64,000 nt of DNA from Patescibacteria group bacterium (lineage in GTDB: Bacteria; Patescibacteriota; Minisyncoccia; Phycocordibacterales; UBA12445). Under the pieces are notes generated by a model, which saw nothing but the letters and a program-made list of their open reading frames with translations, had not been told where the DNA came from and searched no databases. Position 1 is the stretch's first letter, and each line of letters starts with the position of its first letter. The position numbers and the translations under genes were made by a program. This document shows positions 2,750 to 14,847 of the stretch, piece by piece. The stretch lies in the NCBI GenBank assembly GCA_003504275.1, contig DOAO01000009.1:24405-88404 (forward strand), read 5' to 3'.

Positions 2750-2781
2750 CGCCCGTACCGAACGGAATACGTTCGGGCGGG
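2750..2781. repeat. GC-rich palindromic mini-insertion, copy 1 (cgcccgtaccgaacgg-aatac-gttcgggcggg), inserted between D-loop positions 13 and 14 of the pseudo-tRNA-Pro
   Basis: Outer stem cgcccg/cgggcg and inner stem ccgaacg/cgttcgg, both perfect. About 70% GC in an AT-rich genome. Same family as the elements at 14613-14646 and 14815-14847. Confidence 0.7.
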
Positions 2782-2789
2782 AACGGTAA

Positions 2790-2820
2790 TCCCAGTAGTA
2801 GAGCAAGGCTCACTACGGGA
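2790..2820. repeat. Second hairpin insertion in the pseudo-tRNA-Pro (tcccagtagtagagcaaggctcactacggga)
   Basis: Stem tccc.gtag/ctac.ggga with a one-base bulge; absent from the genuine tRNA-Pro. Confidence 0.4.
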
Positions 2821-2853
2821 CAGGCATATACGATTCGCCCTCCTAAATTTTAT

Positions 2854-2925
2854 CGGAACATGGTGTAACGGTAACATACACGATTCGGGTTCGTGTGACT
2901 CTGGGTTCAAATCCCAGTGTTCCGA
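2854..2925 (+). tRNA. tRNA-Pro (anticodon CGG)
   Basis: Hand-folded cloverleaf: acceptor CGGAACA/TGTTCCG with C1:G72; D-stem GTGT/ACAT with conserved GG; anticodon stem CACGA/TCGTG, loop TTCGGGT; T-arm CTGGG-TTCAAAT-CCCAG; discriminator A. CCA not encoded. Confidence 0.85.
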
Positions 2926-3101
2926 TAAGTCACAGCAAACAAATATTTTTTGTTTGCGTTGGGATTTGAAAGCCACAGCGATGTGTGAGTTTGTGCGGAG
3001 CACAAGGCGAACACCGCAAGGCGGGGTCGAGAAAAATTTTCGTCAGAAAATTTGTTCGTGACCAAATCCAGGCATTCCAATTAATAACATTAATAAAATT
3101 T

Positions 3102-4847
3102 ATGGAAAAAGAAAATAAATTGCACAATATAAGACATTCTCTGGCACACATTCTTGCCATGGCTGTGTTAAAAAAAGACCCCGAGGCGAAACTCGGTATC
3201 GGTCCTGTTATAGATAACGGATTTTATTATGATTTTCTTCTCTCAAAACCGCTAAAAGACGAGGATTTGAAAGATGTTGAGAAAACAATGAAGAAAATTA
3301 TTTCTCAAAATATAGAATTTTCTTCTAAGGAAATATCCGCAAAAGATGCGGAGGAAATGTTCGCGAACCAACCTTTCAAACTCGAACTCATAAAAGAGCT
3401 TTCTGAGGAGGATGCAAAACTCAGTGTTTACACATCCGGAGAATTTTCGGATTTATGCAAAGGACCACACGTCAAAATCTCAAAAGAAATAAACACTGAC
3501 GCTTTTAAATTAAAGAGCATCGCCGGAGCATATTGGAGAGGAAGCGAAGATAATCAGATGCTCACAAGAATTTACGGATTATCTTTTGAGACAAAAGACG
3601 AATTGACTGAATATTTAAATATGCTTATTGAAGCAGAAAAGAGAGATCACAGAAAGATTGGAAAAGAACTGGAGTTGTTTACCTTCGATGACGATGTTGG
3701 ACCAGGACTCCCTCTTTGGATGCCAAACGGAACAGTAATAGTTGATGAGCTAGAGAAACTTGCAAAAGAAACGGAAACTAAGGCTGGATATGTGAGGGTT
3801 CGAACTCCCCATATTGCAAAAGAATCAATGTATCTAACGAGCGGACACCTTCCTTATTACAAAGACAGCATGTTCCCCCCAATGGAATATGAGGGTGGAA
3901 AATATTACTTAAGAGCGATGAATTGTCCCCATCACCATAAAATATTCGGCGCAAGAGGCAGAAGTTACAGAGAACTACCCCTTAGACTAGCTGAATATGG
4001 TACTGTTTATAGACACGAAAAATCAGGTGAGCTTTTTGGATTAATGAGAGTGCGAGTCTTAGAGATGAATGATGCGCACATTTACTGCACGAAGGAACAA
4101 TTCGAATCCGAATTTAAAGCAGTCAATGATATGTATCTAAAATATTTTGATCTTTTTGGTATCAAAAAATATGTAATGAGGTTTTCAACACATGATCCAA
4201 AGAGACTCGGAGATAAATATGTAAATGAACCTGCATTATGGAAAGAGACCGAGGATATGGTAAGAAAAGTATTAGTTGACGCAAAAATTCCTTTTATTGA
4301 AATACCAAACGAAGCCGCTTTCTACGGACCAAAAATTGACGTTCAAGTATGGAGCGCGATTGGAAGAGAATTTACTCTTGCTACTAATCAGGTTGACTTC
4401 GCTGTTCCAAAAAGATTTGGGCTAACCTACAAAGACGAGAACAATGAGGAAGTCACGCCTCTCTGTATTCACAGAGCTCCGCTCGGAACACACGAGAGAT
4501 TTATCGGGTTCCTTATTGAGCACTATGCCGGACTTTTCCCAACATGGCTTTCTCCTATACAATTATCAATTCTTCCTATCAGTGAGAAACAGGTTAGATA
4601 TGCAGAAGTAGTAAGAGATGCTTTCCTCGAAGCAGGTGTTCGAGTAGAACTAGATGGAGATAACGAAAGTCTCGGTAAAAAAATAAGAGAGAGCAAGAAA
4701 AAGAAAATTCCATATATGATAATTATCGGGGAAAAAGAGGCATCTAGCGGTATGATTACTGTAGAATCAAGAAACGGAAGCCTTGGAGAAAAGAAAATTG
4801 AGGACTTTGTCGCTGAAATAACCCAAGAAATAAAGGATAGAAAATAA
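3102..4847 (+). CDS. thrS: Threonine--tRNA ligase, short form beginning at the editing/second-additional domain (no N-terminal TGS domain)
   Basis: HSLAHIL zinc motif, class II catalytic motifs (FRAE-like, GGG) and a C-terminal anticodon-binding domain. The in-frame ATG at 3102 sits in AT-rich context; the upstream extension is GC-rich leader sequence and unlikely to be coding. Confidence 0.85.
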   Translation: MEKENKLHNIRHSLAHILAMAVLKKDPEAKLGIGPVIDNGFYYDFLLSKPLKDEDLKDVEKTMKKIISQNIEFSSKEISAKDAEEMFANQPFKLELIKELSEEDAKLSVYTSGEFSDLCKGPHVKISKEINTDAFKLKSIAGAYWRGSEDNQMLTRIYGLSFETKDELTEYLNMLIEAEKRDHRKIGKELELFTFDDDVGPGLPLWMPNGTVIVDELEKLAKETETKAGYVRVRTPHIAKESMYLTSGHLPYYKDSMFPPMEYEGGKYYLRAMNCPHHHKIFGARGRSYRELPLRLAEYGTVYRHEKSGELFGLMRVRVLEMNDAHIYCTKEQFESEFKAVNDMYLKYFDLFGIKKYVMRFSTHDPKRLGDKYVNEPALWKETEDMVRKVLVDAKIPFIEIPNEAAFYGPKIDVQVWSAIGREFTLATNQVDFAVPKRFGLTYKDENNEEVTPLCIHRAPLGTHERFIGFLIEHYAGLFPTWLSPIQLSILPISEKQVRYAEVVRDAFLEAGVRVELDGDNESLGKKIRESKKKKIPYMIIIGEKEASSGMITVESRNGSLGEKKIEDFVAEITQEIKDRK

Positions 4848-4930
4848 TTTTATCTAATTCACAGCTTATTAACAGGTTTGGGCACTTTTTCAAGCTTCTT
4901 ACCCGTTTCTTCATGTGCTAAATTATATCT

Positions 4931-14336: not shown

Positions 14337-14340
14337 ACAA

Positions 14341-14368
14341 AAAAACCAAAGCTTTCACTTTGGTTTTT
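14341..14368. terminator. Bidirectional terminator directly 3' of tRNA-Glu, at the centre of an 83-bp inverted repeat (14311-14393)
   Basis: aaaaaaccaaag-ctttca-ctttggtttttt. The flanking 26-nt arms gattccctgtaaggtctataaataca and tgtatttatgaccttacagggaatc are perfectly complementary. Confidence 0.65.
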
Positions 14369-14376
14369 TGTATTTA

Positions 14377-14448
14377 TGACCTTACAGGGAATCGAACCCT
14401 GATTTACGCCTTGAGAAGGCGCTGTCCTAACCGTTAGACGATAAGGCC
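14377..14448 (-). tRNA. tRNA-Glu (anticodon CUC)
   Basis: Hand-folded cloverleaf: acceptor GGCCTTA/TAAGGTC with one G-U; D-arm GTCT-AACGGTTAG-GAC; anticodon stem GCGCC/GGCGT, loop TTCTCAA; T-arm CAGGG-TTCGATT-CCCTG. Strong overall similarity to bacterial tRNA-Glu. Confidence 0.85.
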
Positions 14449-14587
14449 ACTTATATTCAACTTTCAACATAACACAAACCCTGATTTCCTTCTTACAGAA
14501 GCAGTACACCTGTTCTGTTTTCTGCTTTGTTACTCTCGCAGAAAACCATCACAGGTCTTTCGAAATAATAACATTATTTCTCAACCT

Positions 14588-14720
14588 CTCGAAGGCGCTG
14601 TCCTAACCGTTACCCGCCCGACCAGAACGACTGGTCGTTCGGGCGGAGACGATAAGGCCACTTATATTCAACTTTCAACATAACACGAACCCTGATTTCC
14701 TTCTTACAGAAGCAGTACAC
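14588..14720 (-). pseudogene. Partial duplicate 2 of tRNA-Glu: promoter/leader plus 5' half to anticodon position 34, carrying a GC-rich palindromic insertion in the D-loop
   Basis: The minus strand reads the leader GGTGTACTGCTTC...TATAAGT, then GGCCTTATCGTCT-[insertion]-AACGGTTAGGACAGCGCCTTC, then diverges (GAGAGG) at the anticodon. The leader is about 98% identical to the one preceding the real tRNA. Confidence 0.6.
14613..14646. repeat. GC-rich palindromic mini-insertion, copy 2 (cccgcccg-accagaacgactggt-cgttcgggcgg)
   Basis: Outer cccgcccg/cgggcgg stem shared with copies 1 and 3. Inserted between D-loop positions 13 and 14, the same position as copy 1 in pseudo-tRNA-Pro. Confidence 0.7.
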
Positions 14721-14814
14721 CTTTTGGATATAATTTCGTAAAAACTCAATTCTATCTCAAGAAGGTCTTTCGTTTGGGTCCCCTCCCAAACTCAACCTCT
14801 CGAAGGCGCTGTCC

Positions 14815-14847
14815 CCCGCCCGAACGTACCCGTTCGGTACGGGCGGG
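14815..14847. repeat. GC-rich palindromic mini-insertion, copy 3 (reverse orientation of copy 1)
   Basis: Its reverse complement cccgcccgtaccgaacgg-gtac-gttcgggcggg matches copy 1 (2750-2781) except for the loop. Confidence 0.7.

Follow-up and report, generated by a model that had tools for sequence, protein, structure and literature searches.

HP1, a dispersed family of short GC-rich hairpins concentrated in redundant tRNA gene copies of uncultivated bacteria

Rickettsia palindromic elements (RPEs), which are roughly 100-150 bp long and restricted to Rickettsia, are selfish palindromic DNA without a transposase of its own, dispersed with conserved ends and tolerated in frame within housekeeping protein genes; RPEs also occur in RNA genes. 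Here we describe a family of hairpins, HP1, that appears to behave in much the same way. Three HP1 copies lie in a 64,000-nt stretch of the genome of a Patescibacteria group bacterium (GenBank assembly GCA_003504275.1, contig DOAO01000009.1, positions 24,405 to 88,404 of the forward strand), which we call the window and number from its first letter. Unlike RPEs, HP1 is 32-36 nt long, is GC-rich in AT-rich genomes, is found in Patescibacteria and Ignavibacteria, and is concentrated in partial tRNA copies, a distinction drawn by length and host rather than by direct sequence comparison with RPE-1 to RPE-8.

Another likeness is to the repetitive extragenic palindromic (REP) elements with their REP-associated tyrosine transposases (RAYTs), and to the palindromes of the IS200/IS605 family. 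Like HP1, these are short, imperfect, GC-rich bulged hairpins (20-40 nt) without target duplication, whose non-autonomous copies far outnumber the enzyme genes. However, the HP1 consensus CCCGCCCG...CGGGCGGG lacks the GT[AG]G foot of REPs, and HP1 is found inside genes. Unlike IS200/IS605, HP1 is one hairpin with no distinct left and right ends and no conserved 4-5-nt target 5' of the element, and the nuclease that neighbors it is of the GIY-YIG class rather than the HUH class that serves REP and IS200/IS605 elements. Miniature inverted-repeat transposable elements differ in having target duplications and terminal inverted repeats, whereas the whole of HP1 is a single hairpin. The GC clusters of yeast mitochondria and the double-hairpin elements of Allomyces and chytrids are GC-rich palindromes in AT-rich genomes, found also in RNA and protein genes and often near homing-endonuclease genes. 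They share with HP1 the scattering of GC-rich palindromic mini-elements through AT-rich DNA, but they are organellar and unrelated in sequence, and the GC clusters have a characteristic target duplication. On these comparisons, HP1 is nearest in behavior to RPEs, to the REP and IS200/IS605 hairpins, and to mitochondrial GC clusters, and is a member of none of them by sequence, length, host or enzyme.

Two further precedents concern tRNA genes and the organism group. Phage T4 SegB is a free-standing GIY-YIG homing endonuclease encoded in a tRNA cluster (PMC2330249). Like segB, the GIY-YIG genes found beside many HP1 copies are lodged within or between tRNA genes, and the adjoining tRNA sequence is locally duplicated. 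Unlike SegB, their products are predicted nucleases of ~80 amino acids that consist of the catalytic domain only, with no DNA-binding domain and with a stop codon in the T8-A9-G10 of a tRNA gene, and the duplicated segment contains a conserved hairpin. Bacteria of the candidate phyla radiation (CPR) carry group I introns at position 35/36 of tRNA genes (PMC13011429), and their rRNA carries short insertions without open reading frames (ORFs) at the top or base of stem-loops (PMC11270868). The rRNA insertions come from the same organism group as HP1, but they interrupt functional rRNA genes, whose transcripts presumably tolerate them or have them removed, whereas HP1 lies in dead tRNA copies; no sequence relationship is reported (PMC11270868). 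Literature searches by sequence and by keyword found no description of HP1, nor any of the GIY-YIG/tRNA arrangement in the CPR literature. The family is apparently undescribed, and it is widespread in uncultivated bacteria.

The window has a GC content of ~36% and only two tRNA genes, tRNA-Pro(CGG) and tRNA-Glu(CTC), according to ARAGORN and Rfam, the latter run at gathering and at permissive thresholds. Directly upstream of both lie truncated 5' copies of the gene itself, one for Pro and two in tandem for Glu. All three HP1 copies are in these part-copies. The features of the two loci, and the window's one gene of the GIY-YIG class, are as follows.

2736-2837, + strand: truncated 5' copy of tRNA-Pro, tRNA positions 1 to ~35, ending in the anticodon loop, with two hairpins inserted
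2750-2781, + strand: HP1 copy c1, CGCCCGTACCGAACGGAATACGTTCGGGCGGG, at D-arm 13/14 of the tRNA-Pro part-copy, forward relative to tRNA sense
~2790-2824, + strand: HPb hairpin, TCCCAGTAG...CTACGGGACAGG, at D-arm 21/22 of the tRNA-Pro part-copy; -9.5 kcal/mol, z -5.8
2854-2925 (2853/4 to 2925/6), + strand: intact tRNA-Pro(CGG), called by ARAGORN and by Rfam (62.7 bits), without hairpin
14376-14449, - strand: intact tRNA-Glu(CTC), called by ARAGORN and by Rfam (63.1 bits), without hairpin
14591-14660, - strand: unit 2, a 5' part-copy of tRNA-Glu that runs from position 1 to ~35 and ends in the anticodon loop
14613-14646/14647, + strand: HP1 copy c2, CCCGCCCGACCAGAACGACTGGTCGTTCGGGCGG(A), at D-arm 13/14 of unit 2, reverse relative to tRNA sense
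14802-14887, - strand: tRNA-Glu 5' part-copy, unit 3, older and more diverged, with two insertions, ending in the anticodon loop
14815-14847, - strand: HP1 copy c3, CCCGCCCGTACCGAACGGGTACGTTCGGGCGGG (read on the - strand), at D-arm 21/22 of unit 3, forward relative to tRNA sense
14860-14875, no strand: 16-nt perfect palindrome, CTGTCTGCGCAGACAG, at D-arm 13/14 of unit 3; weak fold, z -1.7
59778-60032, - strand: free-standing gene for a GIY-YIG catalytic domain only, 84 amino acids (PF01541, E 1.9e-17)

The two arrays read [Pro 5' half + HP1 + HPb][tRNA-Pro] and [Glu 5' half + palindrome + HP1][Glu 5' half + HP1][tRNA-Glu]. The Pro part-copy, 16 nt upstream of the intact gene, is called a tRNA by neither ARAGORN nor Rfam, and comparison of the two gives the boundaries of c1 directly: the intact gene reads GGTGT|AACGGTAA where the part-copy reads GGTGT-T[HP1]AACGGTAA. 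Unit 2 and the repeated region of 60 nt upstream of it (14661-14722) make up a tandem unit of 211 nt, and the flanks of c2 match the intact tRNA-Glu gene and its upstream region at 75/76 and 22/22 positions. Since c2 is the only indel between these otherwise identical segments, it is a discrete insertion. When folded as DNA, c1, c2 and c3 give -12.3, -13.5 and -14.0 kcal/mol (z -3.1, -4.6 and -2.7).

A sequence-only reading of this stretch had reported three related GC-rich hairpins in an AT-rich genome, each in tRNA-derived sequence, and in these respects, as in the coordinates of all three, it was correct. The outer-stem pattern CCCGCCCG-N10-30-CGGGCGG matches c2 and c3 and has no match in any of 100 dinucleotide-preserving shuffles (the left arm of c1 is degraded and its inner stem partly decayed), while non-coding 30-mers of at least 70% GC are confined to the two tRNA loci. 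The reading also recognized that two copies and the 16-nt palindrome share a D-arm coordinate (13/14 for c1, c2 and the palindrome, with c3 at 21/22), and that c1 and c3 are reverse complements, which holds on the + strand. Because their host tRNAs lie on opposite strands, c1 and c3 have the same orientation relative to tRNA sense and c2 is inverted. Whether a copy might interrupt a tRNA that is intact elsewhere was raised as a question, and each host indeed turns out to be a part-copy next to an intact tRNA. What went unseen is that the hosts are non-functional partial duplicates of the very tRNA beside them, and that at other loci such part-copies usually flank a stand-alone GIY-YIG gene.

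Beyond the window, we scanned public metagenome contigs with a pattern that fits c1, c2 and c3, which gave at least 120 loci; with viral hits and the window, the catalogue holds 138 copies (the viral contigs gave four matches, none informative). HP1 is 32-36 nt long in this set, with an outer stem CCCGCCC/GGGCGGG and conserved GAAC and GTTC motifs. One string, CCCGCCCGTACCGAACGGTACGTTCGGGCGGG, is identical in 44 of the 138 copies, and a second frequent form is CCCGCCCGACTGAACGA..TCAGTCGTTCGGGCGGG. The positions that the pattern leaves free hold nine inner-stem strings that are mutually complementary, in pairs that include GTACC/GGTAC, GACTG/CAGTC, GTTCC/GGAAC, GTATC/GATAC and GTCCC/GGGAC, and at least four perfect inner pairs are present in 106 of the 138 copies. 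The inner stem covaries among a few complementary forms, which shows that selection acts on it. HP1 has two competing folds that are close in energy, one with outer and inner stems and a GTTC bulge, the other with a slipped CCGAACG/CGTTCGG pairing.

HP1 is a family of dispersed insertions rather than a chance match. Its host contigs range from 31 to 59% GC, and the hosts include Paceibacteria (the window), Doudnabacteria and Ignavibacteria. The Ignavibacteria assignment comes from one 56% GC locus with a neighboring protein at 94% identity, and a sorting domain of type IX secretion is encoded by another ORF that hosts HP1; on these grounds, HP1 crosses phylum boundaries. The 32-mer of HP1 has no match in 72,556 plasmid records and 50,697 phage records, and the tRNA-Pro locus of the window is likewise unmatched in these collections. 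In 80 reference genomes compared by DnaB synteny, the nearest relative is 62% identical and HP1 is absent from all. Some hairpins vary on the theme: L220 (~1925-1985) and L233 (9935-9974) contain HP1 that is expanded internally or has a further hairpin within its loop. A hairpin of L021 (3331-3367, a Zambryskibacteria contig) has an outer stem CCGCCCG...CGGGCGG as in HP1 and an unrelated interior; that at L233 19868-19902 is similar to it, and both may be distant HP1 relatives.

Where does HP1 insert? At least 26 of the 138 copies have tRNA-like flanks. About 80% of the catalogued copies have none, and these non-tRNA sites, numerous as they are, include protein-coding genes. At 13 or more loci the HP1 flanks match, at 95-100% identity, an intact tRNA that lies 60-330 nt from them, as in the window, and HP1 in a tRNA is always in a redundant copy, never in the intact gene. 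Pooling all tRNA-hosted cases, the sites are 21/22 (~17 cases), 13/14 (~6), 17-19 (~4), 9/10 (~3), 7/8 (~1), the anticodon arm (~2) and the T-loop (~2), all of which are stem-loop junctions. No target duplication is seen at 88 of the 138 copies and 1 nt at 34; five duplications of 7 nt are all within tandem heptamer arrays. Both orientations occur at the same tRNA site, which argues for an event at the DNA level and against a strand-specific role in RNA. HP1 is strongly associated with tRNA-derived DNA, and with the D-arm in particular; it is strongly concentrated in redundant tRNA part-copies, and is nearly constant in the cassettes of GIY-YIG and tRNA genes described below. The hosts are not relics of integration: att-site scars of integrases are ruled out, as the part-copies are 5' halves directly upstream of the gene with variable ends and no integrase nearby.

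Some sites outside tRNA genes have features of their own. In eight loci (L098, L106, L122, L125, L164, L195, L146 and L111), HP1 is surrounded by short tandem repeats of 6-9 nt, whose units vary by contig (e.g., GGTTCCT, TTGAAAA, CAGTCGGC and CACAAAGA). In L184 (1-9300), five copies are part of a ~450-nt intergenic repeat that recurs every 1.3-3 kb; the paralogous repeats at 3430-3525 and 8905-9000 lack HP1 at the corresponding point, and the repeats carry CCTGCCTG-type palindromes and GTTAGG/CCTAAC motifs reminiscent of cassette arrays. In two Ignavibacteria-like contigs (L124 1057-1086 and L133 7346-7375), HP1 tips a longer host hairpin, GTGTCGGGAGG...CTCCCGACAC, which is consistent with insertion into the loops of existing stem-loops.

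Insertion into protein genes is clearest in a Doudnabacteria RecG, in which HP1 is in frame and encodes exactly 12 residues (PARLNDISRSGG). These residues correspond to an exact 12-residue gap in Thermotoga maritima RecG and are absent from 118 of 120 relatives among the matches listed, the nearest of which is 75% identical; the remaining two are the host protein and a fragment of it. HP1 is likewise in frame in an ATP synthase gamma gene, where it encodes PARLNDFSRSGG. Five further copies are positioned within Pfam-matching ORFs, a statement of location only and not of frame or insertion status. The RecG orthologues P0126 and P0132 have a different insertion of 14 residues (AAQEGRASLSEAER and AAPEGRASPIFDGR) that precedes the HP1 site by two residues and may be another element inserted at the same spot.

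At many tRNA-hosted loci, the spacer between the HP1 part-copy and the intact tRNA is filled by a ~80-amino-acid ORF that encodes a GIY-YIG catalytic domain only (PF01541, E 1e-15 to 1e-17). The ORF starts at the anticodon-loop breakpoint of the part-copy and stops in the conserved T8-A9-G10 of the intact tRNA. In L220, L221, L223, L229 and L230 (ORF ends near 1740 or 10327), these three bases serve as the TAG stop codon; since the ORF runs into the intact tRNA, its last residues are encoded by the acceptor stem. This cassette architecture, with tandem units and part-copies, recurs over genes for at least eight tRNA species. Tandem arrays of it are found in L131, L177 and L105, and L152 has the mirror image, [tRNA][GIY-YIG][3' half with HP1 in the T-loop]. 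Homologues of the cassette protein that are named by NCBI are nearly all from Patescibacteria.

As a control for ascertainment, we fetched eight loci by the stand-alone GIY-YIG protein alone. Seven of them (L220, L221, L223, L229, L230, L231 and L233) have HP1 in the D-arm of the upstream tRNA part-copy, and the eighth, L216, lacks HP1 and has no part-copy to carry it. The loci L231 and L233 are orthologous, from two genomes of 39% and 45% GC, and the HP1 site is conserved between them. Among the loci selected by HP1 itself, 12 of 15 GIY-YIG ORFs start 8-68 nt from the hairpin; counted the other way, a GIY-YIG start lies within 70 nt in 12 of the 120 HP1 loci. The GIY-YIG gene at 59778-60032 is the only nuclease in the window of the class found beside HP1 elsewhere. 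It is of a different subfamily from the cassette enzymes and adjoins no hairpin.

We think it probable, with room for real doubt, that HP1 is a selfish, non-autonomous DNA hairpin of 32-36 nt that is moved in trans and survives in dead tRNA copies. It inserts as DNA, in both orientations and with no duplication of the target, and would favor the points where stem and loop meet in DNA that can fold, most of all in the arms of tRNA genes. Insertion into a single-copy tRNA gene would be lethal, leaving HP1 visible only in redundant part-copies beside an intact gene. In many genomes, a ~80-amino-acid GIY-YIG gene would have colonized a tRNA gene, and part-copies with HP1 would have come to flank it. 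The bias toward dead tRNA copies would then combine target preference with survivorship. The agent in trans would presumably be a nuclease. It is tempting to name the co-located GIY-YIG protein, and it is the enzyme we favor, although this identification is tentative and more likely wrong than right. More doubtful is an extended form in which HP1 would be the cis-acting site of an unrecognized hairpin-mobilizing system, with the stand-alone ~80-amino-acid GIY-YIG protein that colonizes tRNA genes as its enzyme. Such a system, a GIY-YIG counterpart of REP/RAYT and IS200/IS605, would place HP1 into stem-loop junctions and would have spread from Patescibacteria to Ignavibacteria/Bacteroidota; we regard it as rather unlikely.

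Several points weigh against a mobile HP1 or against this choice of partner. We saw no transposition intermediate and no strain polymorphism for HP1, all assemblies of the window population (from groundwater metagenomes) being 100% identical. The GIY-YIG gene is a candidate, the one partner for which there is any support, and that support is its proximity; no such gene adjoins about half of the copies hosted by tRNA sequence, the three of the window among them. A possible remnant at ~14085-14168 (- strand), with a translation, LFLRIFQSEKMGNLYCS, that resembles the N-terminus of one cassette protein, FVYIIKSEKNGSLYKG, may be a decayed nuclease gene; its tblastn match is weak (E 0.08), the subfamily profile does not find it, and we do not rely on it. 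Unrelated hairpins, namely a palindrome family CCTGCCTG...CAGGCAGG, HPb and the 16-mer, occupy exactly the D-arm sites of HP1, so the site rather than the element could be driving the events. In addition, the search pattern fixes 21 bases, at which conservation is by construction, and host phyla are assigned at a few HP1 loci only.

The most serious rival gives the hairpin a purpose. HP1 could be a selected component of the GIY-YIG/tRNA homing cassette, interrupting the duplicated tRNA segment so that it is immune to the nuclease, or leaving pieces too short for recombination so that the cassette is stabilized. The presence of HP1 in seven of the eight loci sampled without reference to it fits this well, as do the orthologous site in L231 and L233, the short distance of 8-68 nt to the ORF start, and the restriction of tRNA-hosted HP1 to redundant copies. 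That different hairpin families lie at the same sites is also as expected if any disruption were selected. However, the cassette is not where most HP1 copies are: ~80% have no tRNA-like flank, a GIY-YIG start is found within 70 nt at just 12 of the 120 loci, no nuclease gene adjoins the copies in the window, and some copies lie inside housekeeping genes. Moreover, the D-arm of the intact tRNA is unbroken and would still be cut by a D-arm-directed nuclease, and a simple deletion would do as well as a conserved 32-nt hairpin. We give this explanation a minority chance, one that deserves to be taken seriously.

The sequence-only reading had instead proposed a hairpin of the type of REP elements or palindrome-associated transposable elements, mobilized on single-stranded DNA by a Y1 transposase (IS200/IS605 TnpA or RAYT) and inserted next to a D-loop motif, T|AACGG. 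Its core, a dispersed family of insertions, stands, and HP1 resembles REPs and IS200/IS605 ends in being a short, GC-rich, imperfect palindrome with an asymmetric bulge, in lacking target duplication and in occurring in both orientations. The target does not stand, and the enzyme is doubtful. Only c1 and c2 are at T|AACGG; elsewhere the motif is not common to HP1 sites, which are mostly 21/22, with 13/14 and others, and it is the stem-loop junction, not TAACGG, that is the rule. The 5' flank is not conserved, and in place of a specific short motif the flanks show only a weak preference, symmetric about the element, for T at -2 (49%) and for A at +2 (48%), with no fixed motif. The neighboring HPb family has a REP-like GTAG...CTAC, but HP1 itself has no GTAG, and its presence inside genes breaks the extragenic rule. 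A search for Y1/HUH or RAYT genes found none among the Pfam-scanned window ORFs (17 within the first 18.6 kb, 10 small ones further on, and the GIY-YIG ORF) or the recurrent neighbors at 120 HP1 loci, 750 kb in total. When ORFs of at least 100 amino acids from these loci were clustered, no family was present in more than four loci, and the top ten cluster representatives were all ordinary cellular protein families, with no transposase. A Y1 mechanism appears improbable.

Could HP1 act as RNA? It might be an expansion or intervening sequence of tRNA-like transcripts, comparable to the CPR rRNA insertions, which are likewise short, without ORFs and at the top or base of stem-loops (PMC11270868), or a signal for termination or processing that shields the gene downstream. 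A near-palindrome makes a strong hairpin in either orientation, HP1 lies in the 5' leader of GIY-YIG ORFs, and L105 has full-length tRNA-Arg copies with HP1. L105 is nevertheless exceptional, as rerunning ARAGORN after deletion of HP1 turned just 2 of 137 hosts into detectable tRNAs, both of them from L105; the other hosts are truly truncated and could not fold as tRNA. The conserved asymmetry of the GTTC bulge is found on either strand with respect to transcription, the copies in frame in protein genes have no plausible RNA role, and Rfam, at gathering or permissive thresholds, yields neither a family for any of the hairpins nor a group I intron. A tRNA intron is excluded in particular, given the lack of a Rfam intron match, the length of 32 nt, the D-arm site and hosts that stay incomplete after removal. 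That the copies are intrinsic terminators, which had also been raised, is ruled out: a T-tract lies within 10 nt of only 24 of 135 copies (16 on one strand, 8 on the other), and copies lie inside tRNA copies and ORFs. Altogether, a role in RNA is very unlikely. Least credible is that the hairpins are local by-products of break repair or of replication template switching at fragile tRNA D-arm DNA, with no transmissible element, an origin suggested by the several unrelated hairpins at the same two junctions and by a 16-nt palindrome that is unique to this genome and built from a local GTCT motif, but refuted for HP1 by the same sequence 12 kb apart in the window and in more than 100 unrelated contigs of at least two phyla, so that it could apply to the 16-mer only.

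If mobile, HP1 ranks with the shortest insertion elements known. The same sequence across phyla and over varied base composition implies a conserved protein partner, for which we have a candidate only, and HP1 paired with a minimal GIY-YIG nuclease is a testable candidate for a nuclease-hairpin mobility system. In uncultivated genomes, HP1 flags and accounts for tRNA-like debris overlooked by standard tRNA finders, and it breaks assemblies at tRNA loci. It also adds 11-12 residues to housekeeping proteins, and offers a route to learning how essential genes present in one copy withstand invasion when the genome is very small.

HP1 is accompanied by other hairpin families. Homologues of HPb with covarying inner stems are found in L007 (two copies, 18535-18569 and 16810-16838), L033 (18610-18641) and L096 (1708-1739). 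They have the form CCCAGTAG...CTACGGG, with a GTAG/CTAC foot as in REP elements, and in the window and L007 they lie at D-arm 21/22 of dead tRNA halves. Sister families occur together in the tRNA-like half of L007. A third GC-rich palindrome family, CCTGCCTGCC..GGCAGGCAGG, is found in L007 (18498-18521), L163 (2332-2355), L184 (several copies) and L004 (4256); the L007 and L163 copies are inserted into the D-arm of tRNA part-copies, at the very junctions that HP1 occupies.

A second conserved motif lies downstream of tRNA-Pro (3023-3063, + strand) and tRNA-Glu (14226-14265, - strand) in the window, and of tRNA-Phe in another genome (L231, 10350-10388). It consists of GGGGTCG(A/C)G, an AT hairpin (AAAATTTTC-loop-GAAAATTT) and (T)GTGACC. 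Its long outer stem pairs fully only with G-U pairs, which suggests that it acts as RNA. In the window, remnants of the T-loop and acceptor of the same tRNA come after the motif. It has no counterpart in Rfam, nor any match in the viral contigs.

The window is chromosomal DNA, with housekeeping genes that include the DnaE C-terminus, MgtC, a histidine kinase, ThrRS, DnaB, RecR, L21 and RmuC. Its DnaB is closest, at 60-62% identity, to those of Paceibacterota, Nomurabacteria and other Patescibacteria genomes assembled from metagenomes, which places the organism within the CPR. The region downstream of tRNA-Glu (14090-14400) contains at least four fragments of the T-arm and 3' end of that tRNA in both orientations, as well as a palindrome of ~90 nt at 14308-14396 made up of the tRNA-Glu 3' end, its terminator and an inverted copy. 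Positions 12417-14083 hold three tandem units of ~630 nt, in which non-coding blocks that are 72-98% identical lie upstream and downstream of small ORFs, one of which encodes a SET-domain protein.

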